A DNA stretch of 64,000 nucleotides from Raja brachyura (taxonomy: Eukaryota): assembly GCA_963514005.1 (NCBI GenBank), contig OY740811.1:16492001-16556000 (forward strand), read 5' to 3'. The position numbers and the translations under genes are program-made. Position 1 is the first letter of the stretch. The number at the start of each line of letters is the position of its first letter. The notes below the pieces were generated by a model. That model worked only from the letters and a program-made list of their open reading frames with translations, ran no database searches and had not been told where the DNA came from. Shown here one piece after another: positions 3,389 to 44,953 of the stretch.

Positions 3389-3770
3389 GGCAGATGCTAG
3401 TTTACCAATGGAGAAACACACAATGTTGGTGTAACTCAACGGGACAGGCAGCATCTCTGGAGAGAAGGAATCTTCTTCAGACTCAGACTTCAGCCTGAAG
3501 TAGAGTCTGGACCCAGAACGTCACCCATTCCTTCTCTCCAGAGATGCTGCCTGTCCCGCTGATTTACTCCAGCATTTTGTCTCCATCTTCGATTTAAACC
3601 AGCATCTGCAGTTCCTTCCTACACACACGTCAGACAGCATCCTTAGTGATCATGGATAGGTGACAGTTCAGTTTGTGACCTTTCTTCAGACTGGTCCCAA
3701 CCCAAAATATCACCTATCCATGGTCTCCACCGATGCTGGCTTACCCGCTGAGTTACTCCAGCATTTTGCT
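3389..3770. repeat. Two adjacent head-to-head (inverted) pairs of the PLE terminal repeat
   Basis: GGGACAGGCAGCATCTCTGGAGAGAAGGAAT versus ATTCCTTCTCTCCAGAGATGCTGCCTGTCCC; CATGGATAGGTGA versus TCACCTATCCATG. Confidence 0.75.
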
Positions 3771-4249: not shown

Positions 4250-4570
4250 TTTAGTTTTAGTTTAATGTTTTTCATGGAAAGAGGCCCTTAGGCCCACTGA
4301 GTCCATACTGACCATCAAACACCTATTCACACTAGTTCTATGTTAGTCCACTTTCTCATACATTCTCTACACATCAGGGTCAATTTTACAGAGGCCAATT
4401 AACCTGCAAACCCACATGTCTTTGGGTTGTTGGAGGAAACAGGAGCAACCGGATGAAACCCATGCGGTCACAAGGAGAACAGGCAAACTCCGCACACATA
4501 GCGCCCGAGGTCAGAATCAAACTCGGGTCTCTGGCGCTGTGAGGCCTCAGCTCGACCAGTTGCACCACTG
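4250..4570 (-). mobile_element. tRNA-derived V-domain SINE (HE1-like, elasmobranch)
   Basis: Reverse complement gives tRNA-like head GGTGCAACTGGTCGAGCTG...GAGTTTGATTC, V-domain GGAGTTTGCCTGTTCTCC...GGGTTTC...TTTCCTCC, and a (TAAAAC)n tail. Confidence 0.8.
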
Positions 4571-5499
4571 TGCTATTCTTAAACGTGTTCAGAATCTGCA
4601 ATGCACTGCCTGAGGGGGTGGCAGAGGCAGAGATTCTCACAACATTTTGATGAGCAATTGAATTGTCAACCTGTGGAAGGGTACGCTCCAAGTGCTGGCA
4701 AACAGTATTGGTACGGATGGCATTTGATGGTCAGCATGAACATGATGGACTGAAAGGTCCGTGTTCATGTCTTGTGATACTTTGACCTGGTGATGCTATG
4801 AAATGTGGGTCTGGACTCTCACAACTCCTTGAGATCTTTAAATCCAAGCTCCTTAAATCTCTATCCTTTTATCTATTTTGCTTGTGTTGTGTGTGAAGAT
4901 TGTGGGATGGTGTGTCCATTAAGGGGATACATGTGAATTGGTTTTGAACGCTTGGTTATCAAGGTAGGTTTGGAGGATGATGTAAAGATACAAGAATCTA
5001 TATGAATTCCAGTGACTTATTTTACGGCCGAGATTGTAATTACTGAACTAAATTTCAGATATTAAACTGTCATCGGTAAGAACGCTTAAGATTTCCATTC
5101 TCCCAAAAGATTTCAACACCATTTCAGCTCCACCTTTATTCGGGAAGGTACAATACTTGAAATTCTAAAGGAAAACATAAGATCAAGAAGTTATTTATCA
5201 TTTCTAAAATCCTTGTCCACCTCTTTGTTACCTCTCAATTTGTCAGCTTTCCTGATTGCATCCTATGTGAACTTGGACTCATCTAGAATACTTCTGCCGA
5301 TACACTGACTGGCACTGTTCCATGCATCTGTGCTGTCTGACCTGCTTGACACATGCACAGCACTGCTGATATTTGTAATCTTCTACTCATATTCTACCAC
5401 ACCACCTCCTCCTGACCAGCACTCTCAGAAGATCTTGACACTTCTTGCCTGGCCTCTTGCTCATCTACAAATCTAATCCCATGACCACCATCACATGTA

Positions 5500-5952
5500 G
5501 ACATGAGGCCACACACAACTGGAGGAACAGCACCTCATATTCCTCATATTGGGTGGCTTACAACTCAACGGTATGAACATTGAATTTTCAAACTTCAAGT
5601 AATATCCCCCTTTCCTGTGCCCTCCAAGTCCTCTTCTTCCCAACCCCTCATCCCCTTCCACCTACATCCCTCCCTCTGGCTTTACAATTCACTCCTCGCC
5701 CCTCCTTTTTGTCTCTTTTTCATCTCTAGCCTTGGTCACTACCCATCTGTAAATCAAACCACTCCTCACTTATATCCACCTATCACTTGCCAGGATTTGT
5801 CCCCGCATTTTACCCAGCTTTCTGCCCTCACTTCAAAAAAGGGTCCCGACCTGAAACGTCACCTGTCCATTCCCTCCAAAGATGCTGTCTGACCCGCTGA
5901 GTTCCCCCAGCACTTTGTGTCTTGCTCTTGATTCCAGCATCTGCAGTTTCTT
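5500..5952 (+). mobile_element. Penelope-like element 3' end (end of GIY-YIG ORF plus terminal repeat)
   Basis: Encodes ..LEEQHLIF..LGGLQLNGMNIEFSNFK* (interrupted by a short duplication), then a pyrimidine tract and AAGGGTCCCGACCTGAAACGTCACC repeat. Confidence 0.75.
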
Positions 5953-7454
5953 ACATTTTCAGGCATGGCTTTAGTGATCTTGGGGCTAAATGCTGGTTTC
6001 CCCTCCCAACACTTCTCCCTCCCAACTGAACAACCCAGGGCTGCAGTTAATAGAGCTGGTACTCAGCAACTCCAGCAAACCCAATCTCTGATGGTGTCAT
6101 GTTCTCCCTCTGACTCAGTGCATTTGTGCCCACTGTTCTGGTTTCCTCCCACATGCCAAAGATGTGTGAGTTAGCAGGTTAGTTTGCCTCTGTAAAAGAC
6201 CCTCAGCGTGTAAGTGAGGGGTAGAATCTAGGGGGAGTTGATGGAAATGAGGGGTAAAAGTGTTAATGTAAGATTAATGTGAATTGTGGTAGGTTAGCAC
6301 AGACTCAAAGAGCTCAAGGGGCTGATTCAGTGCTGCATGACTCTATGACTTTAACCTTAACACACATATCTTTGCTCATGTTTTTTGATTATCTATTGGC
6401 CTATCTCCTTATATGGCTCAGGGCCATAGTTTGATTGTGCTCTCACTATGGAAATGTTTGCAATGTTCAAGGTGATAAGTAAATGCATGCTGTTGTTGCT
6501 TGTGCATTGTTGACTGCTTGGGAGGTCCCTGGAGGCATTTCATGTCAACGTTAATGAGGTTGCAAAACCTGCAGCCTCTGGCTCCCTGTGAAAGCGAGAA
6601 CACTGAAAGCTGCAACGTGCATCTGGGAGTGGGATCTCCAGAGACCACAGCCTTGTCCCTGGACAAGTCCATTGTGTAGATCACGCGATGCATCGACACT
6701 AAACGCAAAACAACTGAAGACACATTCTCAACTGCTCGCACTTGAAAGGCAGCTTTCAACCTATTAATCTCAATAACGCCAACTATAGATACGTTCTCAA
6801 GGAATATCTGAGAAATCAGACTGACGCTGGTAAGTAAATTCATGAAGAGAATAAAAGTCATATATTAGTCATTTATCAACGTTGGTTTGGATTCATTACA
6901 GGAGGTTTATTCAGAAACTATAGCATTAGTGCTGTGTACTATTTGGTATTTATCTGAAAGGTAAAACATTGATTGCACTGTTATCTCCGCAGGGGGATGT
7001 ATATGTTTTTAGAGTTTATGTACATTATATATAATATTGGCAGTTGGCATAACTATATTATTTGCAATAAACAAAGCCTCACACAGTCTTCCTCAGCTTT
7101 GCAGATGTCATGCGTTGATTCAGTGTTGGCTGTAGCTGCGTTTTTCACACTCTCACTACTCTACTAGACGGTTCACGTTCCAGACCAAAGCTTTTAGCAC
7201 ATAAACTCTGTCGGATTCCCCATTGCAGAATCGAACGTGTGCTGCATTGGTGATGGTGCTACGTTTTGGATGTGTTATTGAACTAGGGTCTCCTCGTTTT
7301 ACTCAGATGGATGCAAAATTAGCTAGGCCACTGAAAAAAACAATGAGGGGGTTCTTCCAATGTCCTGGGGAAATGAATTGCTCAGCTAACTTCACAAAAA
7401 AATGATCGTGTGTTGATTATTCTTTTCTATTGTGGGACCTTAAAGTGAGAAAAT

Positions 7455-7655
7455 GACACGGAGTGCTGGTGTAACTCAGTGGGTCAGCCAGCATCACTGG
7501 AGAACAGTGACAGGTGATGTTTTGTATTAGGACCCTTCTTTGGACTGGTTAATTCCTGATTTGCAATAAGCAGCAAAAAACAAACTGCTGGCGTAACTCA
7601 GCATCTGTGAGGGGGATGGACAGCCAACGTTTCGAGTCGGGACCCTTCTTCAGAT
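7455..7655 (-). repeat. Two PLE terminal repeat fragments
   Basis: GTAACTCAG...CAGCATC...GGTGATGTTT...GACCCTTCTT; ACGTTTCGAGTCGGGACCCTTCTTCAGA. Confidence 0.7.
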
Positions 7656-8039
7656 TTTTATTAATGATTACACTTCAATAAACCAGTTAATCAATAAATT
7701 TGCCTTTGGGTAAATTTGAAAGTGATATGAAAAGAGCAAAAATGTACGTGCACAGTTCCTTAAGGACAGTGTGTCAGTAAAAAGGTTGTAAATGCATACA
7801 GAATGCCTGCCATAACCAGCTGATGCACAGAAGATCAGGGAAGTTATGCTGGAACTGTAGACAACATTAGTAAGACCACAGGTTGGTTCTTTTGTTCAGA
7901 TGCGGAGAGATTGTAGGAGAGACAATGTAGGAGAGATGTGATTACAATGGGGTTGGTGCAGAGATTCACATACTCATGTAGCTTTTTCCAGATCTGGAAA
8001 ATTGCAGAGAGATTGAATATCAAGGGGATTGAAGAACAA

Positions 8040-8590
8040 CCACATACACCTCCTCTAACCACATCCTTTGCATTTGGTGCTCCCAATGTGGCCTGTTTTA
8101 CATTGGCAAGACCAAGTGTAGATTAGGCGACCATTTCAATGAACATTTGCTCTTGGTCCACTGGTCTGCTGGATTTTCTGGGTGCTAATCATTTCAACTA
8201 CACTTCTCATTCCCATACCAACCTTTTTGGCTTGGGCCTCCTCCATTGGAAGAGTGAGGCCACACACAAATGGAGATATAGCACCTCATAGCTTACAACC
8301 CAATGGTAGGACAATTGAAAGCTAAATTTTAGACAAAAAACTAATACCCCCCCCCCCCATTGCAAAACTCTCTGTCTCCCTCCCCCCACCCTTCCCCTGT
8401 GCCCAACCTGGATGTGCACCCATTTCTTCCTCTATCCTGCCTTTCCCTTCCCCATATCACCTTGCACCTAAATACCTTCACCTGGCTACAATCACTGAAG
8501 AATGGTACCTAACTGAAACGTCACATATCCATTCCCTTCACACAGGCTGCCTGACTCATTGAGTTACTCCAGTGTTTTGTATCTTTTTAA
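8040..8590 (+). mobile_element. Penelope-like element remnant with GIY-YIG endonuclease motif and terminal repeat
   Basis: From 8051: SSNHILCIWCSQCGLFYIGKTKCRLGDHFNEHL, then ANHFNYTSHSHTNL..LGLLH; CTGAAGA at 8495 and GAAACGTC at 8515-8522. Confidence 0.85.
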
Positions 8591-9601: not shown

Positions 9602-9830
9602 TGCAGCATCTCTGGAGAACATGGATAGGTGATGTTTCAGGTAGAAACCCTTCATTAGACTGATTATGGGCGGGAGAGAATTCTGAGAGGGAGAGAGGTA
9701 GGACAAAGTGTGTCAGGTAAAAAGTGTGGACACAGGCAAAGGGGGGTGGACACAGGGGTGGTTGATGGTTGGAACAAAGGGGAGGGGGTGTGGAGGGGGT
9801 TGAAAGTAGGGGGAGAAATGGCTGGGAGTC
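9602..9830 (-). repeat. PLE terminal repeat fragment abutting the CpG island
   Basis: GCAGCATCTCTGGAGAACATGGATAGGTGATGTTTCAGG...CCCTTC followed by a purine-rich tract. Confidence 0.7.
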
Positions 9831-9879: not shown

Positions 9880-10800
9880 GGGCCGCTGTTGTCGCCACCC
9901 GGGTACACGTGACCCGCCACCACCCTCCGCTGTGCGAGTGCGTCAGGGCCGGCGGACGCGCGCTCGCGTACACGCCCTGATCCTGAGCCGAAAGCGGTGC
10001 GCGCGCGTGCACGAGGGTACGTGCGCGCGGGGGGCTCGAGGCGGGAGAGCGTGGGGTTTCCCGAGCTGCGAGCAGGGGCGAGTGCCGCACCGCGCCCATC
10101 CCGCCGGAGCCACTGTCTCCGTGTAATGGCCGCCGCCCGCCGCGCCTAGTCCAGTCCAGTCCGTCCCATCCAGCCGGGCAGACAGACTGACCCAGCCGCA
10201 CGCACCGCGCAGCCTTCACTTCATCCCCACCTGCACCGCAGTGCTCACAGCCGACGCCGAGGAGGAACGATAGCCACAGCGCAGTCGGCCCCGAAGCGCG
10301 ACGGTTGGCGCCGAGCCCCGGGCCGAGAGCGGTCAATGTGAGCGGCAGCCCGCCGGGTGAGTGAGTGAGTGTGTGTGGGGGTGGGTGGAGGGGCAGGGGT
10401 AGGCCGCGTGTGAGGGTGGCGAGGGGAGGCCGCCGCCATTGGGGGTTTGTCTGTCTCGGTGTGGGGTACAACTGGGGATGTGGGGGTAGGGATCGGCTGT
10501 GTGTGGATGGGATGCCGCCCTCCCTCCCTCCCTCCCTGATGAATGGATCCCCCGCCCTGGGCCCACTCGGCAAACATGGCGCTTGCCGCCGCCCAGCTTC
10601 CATCCTTCCCTTTATTCCCGATTTGGGGCCCAGGGACCGGTCCGACGGCCAGTGGTCGGTCGAGCCGTACGCTGCCTGGCTGGCCGCTGTTGAAGCTCCA
10701 TCACAACGGGGGGCTGTGACCGTGGCGTCGCCCACGGGCTTGGCCAGTCTCTGTCTCCCGACTGAGCCATCGCGATCGGGGCTCGGGGACTGTTGTATGG
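9880..10800 (+). promoter_or_regulatory. GNB1: CpG island promoter of GNB1
   Basis: Abrupt GC/CpG-rich stretch in an AT-rich, CpG-depleted background. It contains an E-box CACGTGAC (9906-9913), NRF1-like GCGC-rich palindromes (about 9997-10012), a YY1-like TAATGGCCGCC (10124-10134) and a strong donor at 10357. Confidence 0.85.
10110..10356 (+). other. GNB1: Probable non-coding 5'UTR exon 1 of GNB1 (start approximate)
   Basis: Lies in the CpG island and ends in CGG|GTGAGT (GT at 10357). Vertebrate GNB1 has a GC-rich non-coding first exon far upstream of the ATG exon. The TSS cannot be fixed from sequence. Confidence 0.7.
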
Positions 10801-11293
10801 GAATATCTCCATCTTCTTGTAAGAAGGAGTCGTGCCTTGCCCTGTTTTTGCCTTGTTAAAACTAGGTGGGGTCAAAGATTAGGAAAGGATTTTTCTTTAC
10901 ATCCGTGTAACATACACTGACGACCAAAGACGTTTCATGAAATGCCTAGTTGACGGCTTGAATTGGGTAATAGGAAATAGACAGGTGGGGTCCTGCTGCA
11001 TTTAAACCAGTCCTTTCTGTTTCTGAAATTGCATTACAATGTACTAGAAATTTCACGTATGCTTCACATAATTAAAGTCCAAAGAGCGAACGCAAAGGTA
11101 TATTGCTGGATAATTGTTCTTGATACATATACTAAAAGGTGGTTATAAATATACAGGGATAATTTTAGAAAATAAATCTTAACATCTGAAACACAATTGA
11201 CTTGTTTATTTTCATTCCTCATTCCCTTGGATGTATCACTTGCCACCTCTAACTGCTACCTATGTGATCCACCTCTAACTACTACCTATGTGA

Positions 11294-11512
11294 GGGTTAC
11301 ACAAAAAGCTGGAGAAACTCAGCGGGTGCAGCAGCATCTAAGGAGCGAAGGAGATAGGCGACGTTTCGGGTCGAGACCCTTCTTCAGACTGAAGAAGGGT
11401 CTCGACCCGAAACGTCGCCTATCTCCTTGGCTCCTTAGATGCTGCTGCACCCGCTGAGTTTCTCCAGCTTTTTGTGTAACCCTCGATTCTCCAGCATCTG
11501 CAGTTCCTTCTT
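11294..11512. mobile_element. Young non-autonomous PLE-derived insertion: inverted-repeat hairpin with two back-to-back hammerhead cores and an 18-bp TSD
   Basis: Arms 11292-11387 and 11389-11484 are reverse complements (one mismatch). TSD TAACTACTACCTATGTGA at 11276-11293 and 11513-11530. Confidence 0.9.
11389..11416 (+). ncRNA. Minimal type I hammerhead ribozyme core (PLE-associated); mirror copy at 11360-11387 on the - strand
   Basis: CTGAAGA-A-GGGT(CTCG)ACCC-GAAAC-GTC: CUGANGA and GAAA boxes, stem II, loop-less palindromic stem III and a GUC cleavage triplet. Stem I pairing is weak. Confidence 0.6.
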
Positions 11513-13599
11513 TAACTACTACCTATGTGATCTGCTTTTGTAAAGCTTTTTTTTAGGTGGTCTGAGGATATTCCAAGTGACTTATTTCCTTTCCCCATTA
11601 TTTATGAGTGCAGCGACTGGGAATATGAGAAAAGATGCCGTTAATTCGTCATTAAATATATTTGCGTCCAGGTTGTACCATTTATGAGACTTCAGATAAT
11701 TATGTTAATGTTGATATATCATTTATATTTTATATCATCTTCAGTATCAGAAGGGGGTACAAAAGACTGACCTGTAGACTTGGTTTCAAGCCATCAACTT
11801 GACAATTTTTGCTGCAAAATGTGTTCAGTATTAAATTGTCATCTGCAATTATGTTTCTCACTCAAAAAATCCTGCTAATCCGAATTAATTATAACATTTG
11901 GATATAGATTGTAGGATAAATCAAAGCCATGGAATGTTGCTCACAGCTGATAATTGGAATTTGTAGTACATGGAATTTAAAATACTCAAAAACATTGATA
12001 TACCAGGACTTAGCACAAGTAGTTTTAATGCAGAGTCTAATTTTCCAAAAATGGAATGGAAACTATTTCCTCCATCTTCGCCAAGAATCTGTAGTACGTT
12101 GATAGTTTTCTGGAAATTTTCTTTGTAGATGTTCACAACACGTTTTGACATATTTAAATTATGTATTATATACACTGTAGACTGCCATTTGCAGATTTCA
12201 AAAGTATTGGTAAAGAGTGCTCAAACCCATTTGCAATTATTCAATAAAATTATAGCATAGGAAGGCGGCATTGCAATCTGTCTGCAAGCCAAAAAGGGAT
12301 CTTTGGGGGCAAATTCCACTTCTGAGCTCTTGGTTTGTATCTTCATAGGTTGATGAGAGTTTTGTGCTGAGAGTTTCAGGTTCCATTTTTTCCCAGGCAG
12401 TAGCTTCCTGAATCTCATTCCATGGTGGAGGAATTTTATGCCACCCTTATAATTGATCTCCCGAAGGGAAGTGGGTCATGGGTGATACAGCATGGAAATA
12501 CCCTTCAGCCCAACTCATCCAGACCGATCTAAGATCGTCTCATTTGACCAATAACCTCAACATTTCCGATCTATTGACCTTTTAACTGCCTTGTTTTGAA
12601 GAATATCCACCTGCATTCATGGTGCTAATAATATATATCTAAAATTATATTCTTTGTCTTATTTTATTTTGATTTTTGTGACTATAATGTGGGGTTTTGT
12701 CTTGATTTAACAGAATAGTTGTAAATGCATTCTTTAAAACATCTTTTGGGGATTTATTTCTCTCCTTTTGCGAATATTTGGCTTCCCCAAACTACTAATT
12801 CCACTAATACATTTTATCCTCCTATCATTTATCAAATTGAAATGAAAATGATGATTGAACCAAATGTATCGTACACTCTCCAGTGATAATTTCTTCTGAT
12901 CCAGCTTGCTCTTTAATCAGTGTGGTCATTGATTTCAGTTGAATTTTTTCTTATCACAGGGTTACTTCTTTTTTATTAAATAACAGATAACTTGGAGTTT
13001 GGCAAAAACATGAAACGTCTGTGATGCCCAGGAGTGTTCAGCTGGTTCTGAACTTGGGAGTATGTCGAAACCTCAAGTCTGTTTTTATATTACTGCTTTG
13101 AGTTTATTCACTCTTCTTGCTATTGGCAAATAAAATTTTCATTTTTATATTCGGATGTCAATGCGGTGGGCTGTTTTCCTCTTTAAATTACATTGCTATG
13201 GTGTTCCAGGTTACATTTATCCCAAAATTAATCCCAAAATCCCATAGTGTAACCTGGAAGGGGCATGGACAATCTAGCTCCATGGATCTGTTCCACCATT
13301 CAGTTGATTGAAGCCAATTTTTCCTTTAGGTTTATCTTCCTATCTTTTATCCATATCTCGTTATGAAGGCATTGAATAATATTATTCTGTCTAATTTCAA
13401 TCAATTTGGGAGCTGCTGCTTTATGAGAGAAAATTCCAGATTTCTACTATTGTGAAAAGGTGTTTCCTGTTTATTCCTGATTTGATTTTAACCATTTAAT
13501 CCTTGACTTTATTGTAAGTCGATGCATTTCTCCCTTTGTATTTTGAGTACTGGACCCCAAAACTAAACAGTGCTGTATATTGGGCACTAATTTCTTAAA

Positions 13600-22573: not shown

Positions 22574-23714
22574 CAAAGATCTTATAGCGAGCAAGATGGT
22601 CCACTCCACTAAAAAGCTGTAGTTGGGTCAAGGGTAATCTTCAGCGCCATTTCCGTAACCGGCTTCAGTCATGATGTCGTGCTAATTCAGGGAGATTCTG
22701 CTATATCGTGCTGAGAGATTAAAGGATAGACACAAAATGCAGCGGGTTGGGGCGGCATTTCTGGACAAAAGGAAGAGGTGACATTTCAGGTTCAGACTGA
22801 GTCTGGGGAAAGAGGAACACAAACCGTCCTCCCCCTCCCTGTGACGCGGACATGGAGCAATCGCCCCCCCTTTTTGTTAAGCATCCATTTCCTTCGGGGT
22901 TTTTTTTTAATTTCCCTCTTACCATTTCCGTATTTTTTCGATAGTTGCCATGACCCATTTGATGTCTTCCTTCGCCCTGCTCCTCAAAGATCTTAACGCG
23001 ATCTTTGCTGCTCCTGCTCTCTGCCCGCACTGATCTGCAAGACCTGCTGTGTGTGTGTGTGTTTGGCGGAGTCTGAGGGGAGAAGTGCCAGCACCAAGAG
23101 CGAGCGGACAGACGGACAAAAGCAACGATCATAGAGCGGAATAGGTGACCAAAGATCTTTGTAGGTGACATTTTGGGTCGAGGCCCTTCTTCAGACTGAG
23201 TCGGGAAAGAGGAGCAAGAGATATAGACGGTACTGCGGATGAATTAATGGAAGATGTGCCTATATTTCCCTTTCCCTTTACTGTCAGTCTGAAGAAGGGT
23301 CTCGACCTGAAATGTCCACCTATGCCGTTCTACGACAGTTGCTTTCGTCCGTCTGTCCGCGCGTTCGCTCGCTCTTGGTGCTGATGCTTCTCCCCTCAGA
23401 CTCCGCCAAAGAAACACACATACACGCACAGCATGTCCGGCAGCTATTGAAAAAGTTGACTCGAAATATCACCTACGCCTTTTGTGTCTGTCTTCGATTT
23501 AAGCCAGCATCTGCAGTTCCTTCCTATACAAGGTATGTGCCGTTTAAAAAGTAAATTAAAAAACAAACAAACTGTTCCCCCGCAACGCTGCGAGAGGCAT
23601 AACTGAAGTTGGGTCGGGGTTACTGAAATGACGGAAGGTACACTCGGTGCGTACTACACGTCAGTCCATTGTATTTCGCAGGAGTGGACCATCTTGCTCG
23701 CTATAAGATCTTTG
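22574..23714. mobile_element. Non-autonomous DNA transposon (P- or hAT-type) with perfect 34-bp TIRs and an 8-bp TSD, inserted in a CR1 remnant
   Basis: CAAAGATCTTATAGCGAGCAAGATGGTCCACTCC at 22574-22607 and its exact reverse complement at 23681-23714. Flanks are CTCCCTAG and CTCCCTTG. Confidence 0.85.
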
Positions 23715-36069: not shown

Positions 36070-36530
36070 TTTTGCAAAGACAACTGCATCTGCAGTTCCT
36101 TCTTATAGAAGAAGAACCTGGCCCGAAACAACTCCTAATCCATTCCCTCCACAGATGCCGCCCAACGAATTGAGTTCCTCCAACACTCTGTTTTTTATTT
36201 AACTAAAATTGAAGATGGACACAAAAAGCTGGAGTAATTCAGCGGGGCAGGCAGCGACTGGAGAGAAGGAATGGGTCACATTTGTACAGAGTTATGCAAA
36301 GCAGCTTTCGTTGCCTCCAACAGCTTTCGTTATCTTTATTTTTTCGACCTGCTCTCATGTGTCTCTGCTCTCTCTCTCTCTCCCCCTTTCACTCCCTCCC
36401 TTCCCTGCTTCAGACAATCACAAGTACTCTCACCGACGAGAGTTCAGTTCAGTCTGAAGAAGGGTCTCAACCAGTAACGTCACCCGTTCCTTCTCTCCAG
36501 AGTCGCTGCCTGTCCCGCTCCAGGTTTAAA
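36070..36530. repeat. Cluster of PLE terminal repeats including a head-to-head pair
   Basis: 36241-36279 is the reverse complement of about 36480-36519; CTGAAGAAGGGTCTC at 36454. Confidence 0.75.
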
Positions 36531-38600: not shown

Positions 38601-41600
38601 TTGTTTAGTTTATTATTATTGTCACATGTACCGAGGTAGAGTGGAAAGCTTTTTTTTGTTGCATCCTATCCATTCAGTGAAAAGGCTATATATGATTACA
38701 TTCAAGCTGTCCACAGTGTGCAAATGCAGGATAAAGGGTAGAATGTTTAATGCAAGATAAAGTCCAGCAAAGTCCAATTAAAGATAGTTTGAAGGTCTCA
38801 GTGAGGTACATGCATATCAGGACTGCTCCCTGGTCCTGATATGCATGTACCTCACTAATATTCAAAAAATATGACTTGAAATTTCCAATGTGCTACTTCT
38901 AAAAAATGAGCTATCAAATTAGAAAGCATAAACGACACTGCTGCAAGTTGTAAGCAGAAGAATCTTTCCTTAATCTTCTCCGTTGTACTAGTCATCGCTC
39001 GACATATCCGTTTATCTACGACTTGTGATTTATTGTGCCTATTTTTAAAGTTTATTTAACAGTCATTATATTTGAATATTCTGGCTGTATACACACACCT
39101 TTTCATATGGATGATAAAGTTAATTCCTGACCTATGCTGTCTCACGTGTTCTTATGCTTAAAATTCATAGGTAAATTTCATATGTTAAGTTGATGCAGTT
39201 TGTAAACTAAATTTACTTGACATTTGTGTCTACATCCATGCTAGGGTTATAAAATGCCTGAGCCATTTAAAAAAATAAAAATAAAGATATAGAGAAAAAG
39301 ATGTTAACATTTAGAATATTCTCAGTTTGTGGCATTCCTGCTATTAGTCAAGAATAAAACTTCACATTTTATTTCACTTTAACTAAAATGTCTCTGGTGT
39401 ACCACAGATCTTCTGTGTGTGAATTGAATAACGAGAACTTTTGGGTATTCTGAAGTTTAAAGTGAACCTTGAAAGGTGACGTTACCTGTAAATAACTTTA
39501 AGCATTGTTAGTTCCTGGCTTGAACAATGTCAATAGTAGTTCATTGACGTCAGGACGCTAAATAAATTGAAGACCTTTATTTACATCAATTTTCCAGTTC
39601 CACGGGACTTGAAATAATCAGTCTGTTACCCAGGAGCACATAACATCACAGTGGGTGCAGTTTGAAGAATAGGCTACCTTAGCCAATATGATTCAAATTG
39701 TTTGCTTTATATAGATTAGTTGCCAAGCACATCATTTGAAGAACTTTAATTAGCTAACCTCATGTGAAGTGTTGACACAAAAAATTCGAAGCAAATACAA
39801 GGCACATATTAGACTTGATTGCACGGTTTTATATATATTTGTCTGAGGAGTCAAGCATCCCTGGAAATTCTTATTGTTGATTTTCCTTTGTATTGAGTGA
39901 ATTATAAGATTCCTTCAGTGATCACTTGGAGTTTAATCAAACCATAGGTCTGCAATACGAAACACTGGGTTGTTGTTTAACACAAGTCTTGTTATTTAAC
40001 TGATTTGCAAGTCGTGGTGGGATGTGAACGTGTAGAATCCTCTGGATTTAAATGTGTTTATATAACAAAAACATTTAAAAAAGGATGCCGGTGCAAATCT
40101 TAGCTGGTAGCATGGCATCTTCAGAGAGAGACCGAGTTATACAAAATTAAGTGATGGTAAGAAAAGAGGCTCCGGAGATGGAAAGAAACCTCCATCCCAG
40201 CCGTGTTAAGACAGGAAGGCATGGGGTTATGGTGAGGATAAATAGATTTTAGAGGATGTCTGCGGAATTGTTATCACCCAGAGTTCCTTTCTAGAATACT
40301 AATGTTGGAGGCAGATACTCAACAATATAAGTAACATCTGAACAAGCACTTGAATCACCAAGACACCGAGGAAGACAGGCCTGGTAAATGGAATTAGTAT
40401 GTCATAAGCTGTATTAGTATGTGATATGGACTGGAGGATCTGTTTCTGGGCTGAGAATCTATTGTCACTATTTCCTGAATTTTCCCTCGTCCTTCGCACA
40501 TCGTTAGCAACACTTGCAAGTTGGACTACTTGCAAAAAAATTTACCAAGTTAGCCACAGCTACAGAGAGAGAGAGAGAGATAAGGGGAGAATCATATGAT
40601 CATTAATATAGCAGCATTGGTCAAAAGGAACAGGTATCACATTGTCAGTTTCTGATAAGTGTTGCTAGGTTCCAAAAAAATATTTTGAGCAGCATCAATT
40701 TGAACAGATCAAAATTGTTAACAGTGGAAAATTGAGTTATAGGTCAATTGTTTAAGATTTCTTGTAGGTTGGTGATGCAGCAGCTAATGAGATTAAATGA
40801 TCTAGGTTCACTCCTGAACTAGAAAGCTATTTATAGAGTTTTCCCAATGATCTTGTCGTTTTCCACTGGGTGCTCTGATTTCACCCACATTCCTAAAATG
40901 TGCTGATGGGTTAATGGCCTACGCTTAAAATAAAATCCTTGCTGGAAATAAGTGGCAGAAGAATCAAAGTAGAGTTGATGATCCAGCAATGGTGTAAGTT
41001 GAAGAGCCGCAGGGCAGCGCCAAGTAGAAATCAGATTGCAGCAGTTTCTAATGTATATCTGGATTACACTTACAATGATCAATGTGATTTTGTTCAAATT
41101 TGTATTGGGATTGTTGCTTGTTGCACACAGTGCTTTACTGATAGGTAGCAGAAAATCCCTCCCGTTATCAGTGTAAATACCAATGATTTTCACAACTCTC
41201 CTAGGATCATAGTAATAAAATAAACAAACAAAGGTTAATTCTCGGGAAAAGCAAAAAGATTGATGGATTTAAAATGTTTCACTAAAATATTCATATCCAC
41301 GATGGCATTTTAAGTACCGAGATGTTTTGTGGTATTCATAAGCATTTGCTTTTGAGTGATGCCATCAATGGATTGAATTACATGCAGATTAGATAGTGAA
41401 ATAGCATTCCAAAGAATATAACTTGTTAGCTTTATATGTATCATTTGTCTATCCTAGATATGAGACCAAAAACAACTTGGTTTATAAACCTGTAATCCTA
41501 AGAACAGAGAACCTTAAATTATTTATGTGTTCCTAATTTCAGTTCTCCATTTCTCAGCATATGTCATCTTATCTATTACTAAATGATCTATTGTGTACAA

Positions 41601-44430: not shown

Positions 44431-44487
44431 ATGAGTGAGCTGGAGCAGTTACGTCAGGAGGCTGAGCAACTGAAGAATCAGATCCGA
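44431..44487 (+). CDS. GNB1: G protein beta-1, coding exon 1 (exon begins about 44389 with 42 nt of UTR)
   Basis: MSELEQLRQEAEQLKNQIR; acceptor TTTTTAAG ending 44388; donor GTGAGT at 44488; 57 nt. Confidence 0.97.
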
Positions 44488-44829: not shown

Positions 44830-44953
44830 TATCTTTGTCCCGCACCCTCCCTGACATCAGTCTGAAGAAGGGTCTCGACCCGAAACGTCACCCATTCCTT
44901 CTCTCCAGAGATGCTGCCTGACCCGCTGAGTTACTCCAGCATTTGTGTCTACC
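44830..44953 (+). mobile_element. PLE terminal repeat with intact hammerhead core (44862-44889), sense to GNB1
   Basis: CAGT-CTGAAGA-A-GGGTCTCGACCC-GAAAC-GTC-ACCCATTCCTTCTCTCCAGAGATGCTGCCTGACCCGCTGAGTTACTCCAGCA. Confidence 0.85.

Follow-up and report, generated by a model that had tools for sequence, protein, structure and literature searches.

A young palindromic insertion with two hammerhead cores, probably a twin-primed leader copy of a Neptune-type Penelope-like element

How can an insertion come to consist of a near-perfect palindrome with one hammerhead core on each strand? The window (the whole 64-kb stretch analysed) raises this question with two arms, at 11292-11387 and 11389-11484, each the reverse complement of the other along 96 nt but for a single mismatch (11347/11429), around a 1-nt centre at 11388. 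All of these features of the initial annotation were recovered. The palindrome is bounded by an 18-mer direct repeat on the + strand (11276-11293 and 11513-11530). The final 2 nt of the left copy are shared with the inverted arm and the first 4 nt of the right copy with the element template; this overlap gives a nick stagger of 12-18 bp and an element proper of 219 bp (11294-11512). The predicted RNA fold of the palindrome reaches -201.9 kcal/mol (z = -28.7, with 0 of 200 shuffles equally stable), and its predicted DNA hairpin -128.6 kcal/mol. Perfect inverted repeats of at least 14 bp with a gap of at most 10 occur once more in the whole window; a 24-bp perfect inverted repeat with a 9-nt spacer and no relation to the arm lies at 38800-38856.

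The insertion is young and its target-site duplication (TSD) genuine. In runs from three related organisms (X3, X8 and X11), one contig each aligns with 10850-11275 and continues unbroken at 11513, so that the orthologous site in all three lacks 237 bp, the 219 bp of the element and one 18-mer. The closest of them is X3, with 6 substitutions and 1 gap over 914 bp of flanking sequence. It had been predicted that an empty site would hold one 18-mer, and a single copy was found in 3/3 organisms, which is what supports both the youth of the insertion and the duplication of its target. The related older tandem copy noted before was located at 11243-11268 (+ strand); it is a host repeat of period 26 that predates the insertion, being present at 3/3 empty orthologous sites.

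We then asked which element the insertion derives from. The long arm of the window copy is identical at 125 of 129 nt to the leader of a parent locus, L088, whose 774-aa frame has matches under the curated Pfam cut-offs to RVT_1 (E = 4e-4) and GIY-YIG (E = 9e-4); the parent protein has atlas hits at 0.98 that carry HTH_animal/RVT_1/GIY-YIG. Its translation contains a C-x4-C-x2-C linker, DKG and a C-terminal LIYIG, the Neptune motif set, and a C-terminal EN, a CX2-5CxxC linker and a DKG motif are given as hallmarks of Neptune (PMC8557442). Tandem units forming pLTRs measure 4043 and 4051 bp in L088 and 3930 bp in L086. Judged by sequence, the parent is a Neptune-type EN+ Penelope-like element (PLE) and the arm is its pLTR/5' leader. 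The apparent ATG lies at arm position 164, so the insert is non-coding, and the earlier description of a 219-bp non-coding PLE derivative holds. The L088 frames lie on the - strand (an N-terminal 346-aa frame at 7044-8084 and the 774-aa RT-EN frame at 4408-6732) and are separate, with a low-complexity stretch between them; a frameshift or an intron may divide them.

Mapped on this parent, the inverted, tailless arm (11294-11387, - strand) corresponds to pLTR positions 1-94 and stops at the first of two clusters of 3' ends (site 1). The direct arm (11389-11484, + strand) carries a private C>G change at 11429 and is followed by the PLE 'tail' (11485-11512, + strand), which stops at the second cluster (site 2), according to our end mapping and to PMC11167929. 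The motif TAAC is found at both 3' end sites, 36 nt apart, at arm positions 89-92 and 125-128 (window 11477-11480 and 11513-11516). The TAAC pair flanks the predicted arm-tail stem, and TSDs often open with matching bases.

One core per strand had been proposed, and CUGAAGA...GAAAC is indeed present on both, in putative minimal hammerheads at 11360-11387 (- strand) and 11389-11416 (+ strand). Their positions confirm that the axis adjoins the CUGA box. Read against the features given in PMC4209133, the core boxes, a helix II with G10.1-C11.1 and the palindromic 15.2-16.2 are present, and helix II was recovered in single-arm RNA folds. On the - strand, helix I has 2 bp and a base U.G, as it has in the parent; on the + strand its closing pair is broken (A opposite G). 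A helix I of 2 bp is reported for the D. virilis hammerhead. The minimal motif requires a same-strand partner and cleaves poorly (PMC4209133). The two opposite-strand cores would, on our reading, be unable to form the required dimer, and the nearest intact core on the + strand within the window is at 44862. Single-arm folds show the arm-tail stem and are no better than shuffles (z -0.4 to -0.9), giving no evidence of selection. At gathering level, Rfam returned no match in the 64-kb window, hammerhead included. A miRNA identity was rejected, as Rfam at E up to 10 gave only generic miRNA-type hairpins far under thresholds.

The search for like-centred palindromes suggested by the initial annotation shows that the window copy is not exceptional. 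Genome-wide, we counted 50,608 exact matches to the 28-nt core, 3,952 head-to-head pairs separated by 0-13 nt and 1,060 exact 31-nt palindromic centres, of which 1,042 have A or T at the centre and 18 have C or G; reversed-pattern controls gave 0. Exact cores of an older type number 12,457, a count not comparable enough with those of palindromes to gauge loss with age. The locus in the window is an ordinary copy, and it is the large, young and uniform copy set that carries the interest.

The window itself holds 21 further matches to the arm. Direct copies lie at 5836, 13609, 16759, 25145, 44862 and 50425, and older subfamilies are represented by decayed copies, inverted or complex, at 3416-3768, 9603-9662 and 36219-36509. 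At 8041-8257, an old fragment is 66% identical to the 3' region (endonuclease) of the parent, and the remnant of a core accompanies it at about 8494-8580. At 23162-23316, an older head-to-head pair of the same family has a 94-nt spacer drawn from two different upstream pLTR variants, which suggests two templates within one insertion. Elsewhere in the genome, L127 is a tail-to-tail pair flanking a short inverted target, L061-L063 are small tandem, retrozyme-like derivatives of the family, and the palindromes at L005-L007 and L010-L011 ride in host tandem or segmental duplications, with identical flanks.

We sampled two sets of loci, both from a single contig (C1). The palindrome set has 48 members (50 listed loci on C1 and the window copy, minus 3 duplicates), with a TSD of at least 10 bp in 42, a shorter one in 2 and none in 4. 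The unselected set was anchored on the middle of the arm and comprises 70 loci within the initial 3.6 Mb of C1, most of 100 listed matches. It excludes palindromes L003-L007, L052, L053 and L055 and the final places of the list, and hence gives no estimate of the share of inverted copies. Mapping on the parent resolved 49 direct copies, 16 head-to-head pairs and 1 tail-to-tail pair (uncounted); the pair classes were assigned by hand from this mapping. Exact-match TSDs on direct copies were found at 6/30 loci in one set and at a minority in another, so that untemplated bases are readable at few loci.

The 3' ends fall into two clusters, at arm positions of about 90-97 and 127-132, in agreement with the two tail-flanking start sites described in PMC11167929. 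Among direct copies, 16/49 have the tail and 33/49 stop at site 1. Exactly one tail is present in 45/48 palindromes by pattern and in 47/48 after inspection of the three exceptions (two with one displaced tail, one rearranged), and there are no two-tailed palindromes. The other head-to-head pairs have one tail in 16/16 cases, against 44% expected from independent ends (p = 2e-6).

The centre and the arms are informative in other ways. Relative to the tail, the centre base is A in 21 palindromes and T in 24, both states occurring within each of two subfamilies. In the window it is A, and in the parent a T precedes the core. When the arms are unequal, the tailless arm extends further 5' in 9 pairs and the tailed arm in 2. 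The subfamily variant at position 42 is found on both arms in 7 loci, on a single arm in 2 and on neither in 28 (p = 6e-6). Across 37 young loci, differences between arms are mostly one-sided (57 against 22 symmetric), and 11 singleton variants are symmetric. The shared subfamily variants and the mostly one-sided differences indicate that the arms came from one source and then decayed separately. Spacers form a continuum from 0 to more than 150 nt, and most are ACT plus 0-2 nt plus AGT, or short stutters.

The position of the axis coincides with a hotspot of 5' ends. Among direct copies with a visible 5' end, 24/27 end within -7 to +7 of the CUGA box and 0/27 at the predicted cleavage site (position 28-29); the axis of the palindromes precedes the predicted GUC cleavage site by about 28 nt. 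Across the genome, departure from the native sequence occurs at -4 in 4,464 copies and at -9 in 216; chance matches of 3 nt and the older subfamilies within the -4 set inflate this contrast. A further 10,421 copies are native through -9. In a hand count of the first 100 listed, position -4 holds G in 54, A in 35 and T in 11, an excess of G (p = 9e-9) in a test that assumes a background composition. The count of A, far above that of T, is one for which cap copying gives no reason. The initiator consensus is YYANWYY, and the context of the hotspot fits it with A at -3. The hotspot thus reads as the putative capped 5' end of the RNA, at an A three bases upstream of the CUGA box. A stall or a splice-related end is possible, the latter because the hotspot bases are similar to a 3' splice site and helix I is where the D. 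virilis intron stops (PMC4209133). The L088 leader has, from -30 to -1, a pyrimidine tract, branch-like motifs and a CAG ending one base short of the core; no spliced copies were seen.

In L1 twin priming, the second target strand primes on the RNA, yielding an inverted 5' segment, a microhomology join and one TSD. We consider it probable that the window copy, as a young hammerhead-bearing leader insertion of a Neptune-type PLE, was built in situ by a comparable process, a reading based on genomic footprints. The enzyme of the element would nick both target strands with a stagger of 12-18 bp. One target 3' end would prime at site 2, including the tail, and the other at site 1, without it, both aided by 2-4 nt of homology. 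This is a caveat, as junctions often have such homology, in contrast with the homology-free priming observed in vitro (PMC11167929). Both cDNAs would run off the capped 5' end of the RNA at the A in -3, in a strong-stop-like manner, and their ends would anneal through a short self-complementary stretch around the T, with an A.A mismatch. Pairing by 2-3 bp on either side of this mismatch would give the observed 1-nt A/T centre, the mismatch being resolved to A or T at random; alternatively, the mix of A and T may come from later flipping of the centre by recombination between arms. The two cDNAs would thus be joined head to head. The product would be a dead end, because in its RNA the ribozyme core and the tail stem would both be hidden by a 96-bp hairpin. 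A stricter version, which falls a little short of being probable, takes the palindromes as direct footprints of PLE integration: a dimeric enzyme would invariably begin at site 1 on one target strand and at site 2 on its partner, and internal priming on the leader would yield a retrovirus-like strong-stop DNA ending at the capped -3.

The main rival is a self-primed hairpin. In this unlikely though serious alternative, the end of an (antisense) RNA or cDNA folds back near the CUGA box, and the endonuclease trims the full hairpin at one end on integration. Hairpin self-priming is the model of Arkhipova et al. 2013, and was proposed from palindromes at inverted junctions (PMC3846280); Craig et al. 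2021 view the tail as arising from resolution, which is ascribed to EN (PMC8557442). Such a hairpin accounts for the concordance of the arms, for the single tail and for either centre base. However, the tail ends were later found to be start sites of reverse transcription, with both strands extended (PMC11167929), and a 1-nt loop makes a poor self-primer. In addition, the stutter junctions and the 154-nt filler caught between two complete 5' ends at L054 resemble the joining of two free ends.

The initial annotation favoured target-primed integration with fold-back at the ribozyme, taken here as a single tail-primed cDNA folding back and copying itself. The PLE insertion with a TSD stands, but the fold-back step is contradicted by the data, barring frequent later flipping of the centre, and is very improbable. 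It would fit the near-identity of arms that have subfamily variants in common, and an axis adjoining the CUGA box. Yet it requires a T before the tailed arm, where the window copy and 21/45 sampled palindromes have A, and a tailed arm with the longer 5' reach, which is the minority state (2 against 9). Moreover, the inverted arm ends at site 1, as do the 33 tailless direct copies, and the axis is some 28 nt away from the predicted cleavage site. We give equally little credence to a ready-made palindromic master, MITE-like and non-autonomous, amplified as a unit. It would explain why 1,060 palindromes are nearly uniform, measure about 220 bp and have TSDs, but both centre states occur inside each subfamily, in old and young families, the spacers are continuous from 0 to more than 150 nt, and any one-sided variant recurs in at most 3/37 loci, most being private. 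Finally, an assembly or library fold-back artefact is the least probable reading: although no single record spans the palindrome or its centre, and the junction-bearing run X1 may be the assembly's own sample, X1 contigs traverse the two junctions (no difference over 10850-11314, one over 11492-12000), the flanks are unmirrored and collinear with the empty sites, and the TSD and one-sided tail recur at 47 other loci.

Parts of this architecture have precedents. An inverted pLTR set against a direct one, with junction palindromes, a tail at one end and a TSD, was described together with a proposal of self-priming on an antisense template (PMC3846280), and matching arrangements are given in the general scheme of PMC8557442 and for D. 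virilis Penelope in PMC2377424. As in Adineta Pen2a/Pen3a and D. virilis Penelope, the pLTRs are head to head, with a tail at one end (30-40 bp in those elements) and a TSD round the unit. Unlike them, the insertion lacks an ORF or upstream pLTR and is the palindrome alone, its axis is fixed just upstream of the CUGA box, and it has more than 1,000 copies. In Poseidon_Ac (PAc) from Anolis, the enzyme cut and extended both target strands, was predicted to be a dimer and could dispense with ribozyme cleavage (PMC11167929). Our copies resemble PAc in having a hammerhead close to where pLTR and ORF meet, a tail delimited by two internal start sites spaced about 35 nt, and both strands cut and extended, which was shown for PAc and is deduced here from genomic footprints. 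They differ in the Neptune-type linker, the clade and the placing of the arm upstream of the apparent ATG. The available text of PMC11167929 has no account of inverted copies and reports no 5'-end hotspot.

The cores themselves resemble the minimal type I hammerheads of metazoan PLEs in their boxes, the extra base between 9 and 10.1, G10.1-C11.1 and the palindromic 15.2-16.2 (PMC4209133). The dual motifs on opposite strands described there are 100-700 bp apart; here the spacing is 1 nt, with a helix I of at most 2 bp, broken on the + strand. Non-LTR retrozymes (bioRxiv 10.64898/2026.07.22.740005) are, like these copies, non-coding, hammerhead-bearing derivatives of a PLE pLTR. We rejected a retrozyme identity for the window copy: as described in that preprint, it requires a head-to-tail tandem with a hammerhead per unit, and the window copy is a single head-to-head pair. 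L1 twin priming differs in its variable second site and its segments without overlap, whereas here the sites are fixed and the same stretch is copied twice. Neither such a palindromic PLE stump nor this twin-priming model was described in the literature that we searched on skate and elasmobranch PLE hammerheads, Penelope twin priming and palindromic non-autonomous Penelope, a scope outside which lie subscription journals and Repbase/Dfam.

The host gene named by the initial annotation, GNB1 (G-beta-1), was corroborated by an exon matching GNB1 chains in PDB. Its coding exons lie on the + strand, from the first at 44431 to beyond 58432. A GC- and CpG-rich region at about 10000-10800, with a candidate splice donor at 10357, is likely the first exon of GNB1, the first coding exon being 34 kb downstream. 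The placement about 0.9 kb into intron 1 agrees with a distance of about 0.94 kb from this donor; that the intron is the first is deduced from the GC-rich region and the candidate donor. The insertion is most likely a neutral intronic passenger. ADAR or Dicer processing of its RNA and cruciform extrusion of its DNA would be physically plausible.

The life cycle of PLEs is termed still undefined in PMC8557442, and the copy set bears on how these elements form inverted repeats. The one-tail rule and the 5'-end hotspot each yield a sharp prediction for the in vitro system already established. If the stricter version is true, a single rule, needing no antisense template, would account in all EN+ PLEs for the tail, for the inverted pLTR and for solo copies of about 95 or 128 bp. 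PLEs would then have seeded more than 1,000 perfect hairpins of about 95 bp into one vertebrate genome. The load of near-perfect 95-bp hairpins, partly intronic, would constitute potential sites of dsRNA and cruciforms.
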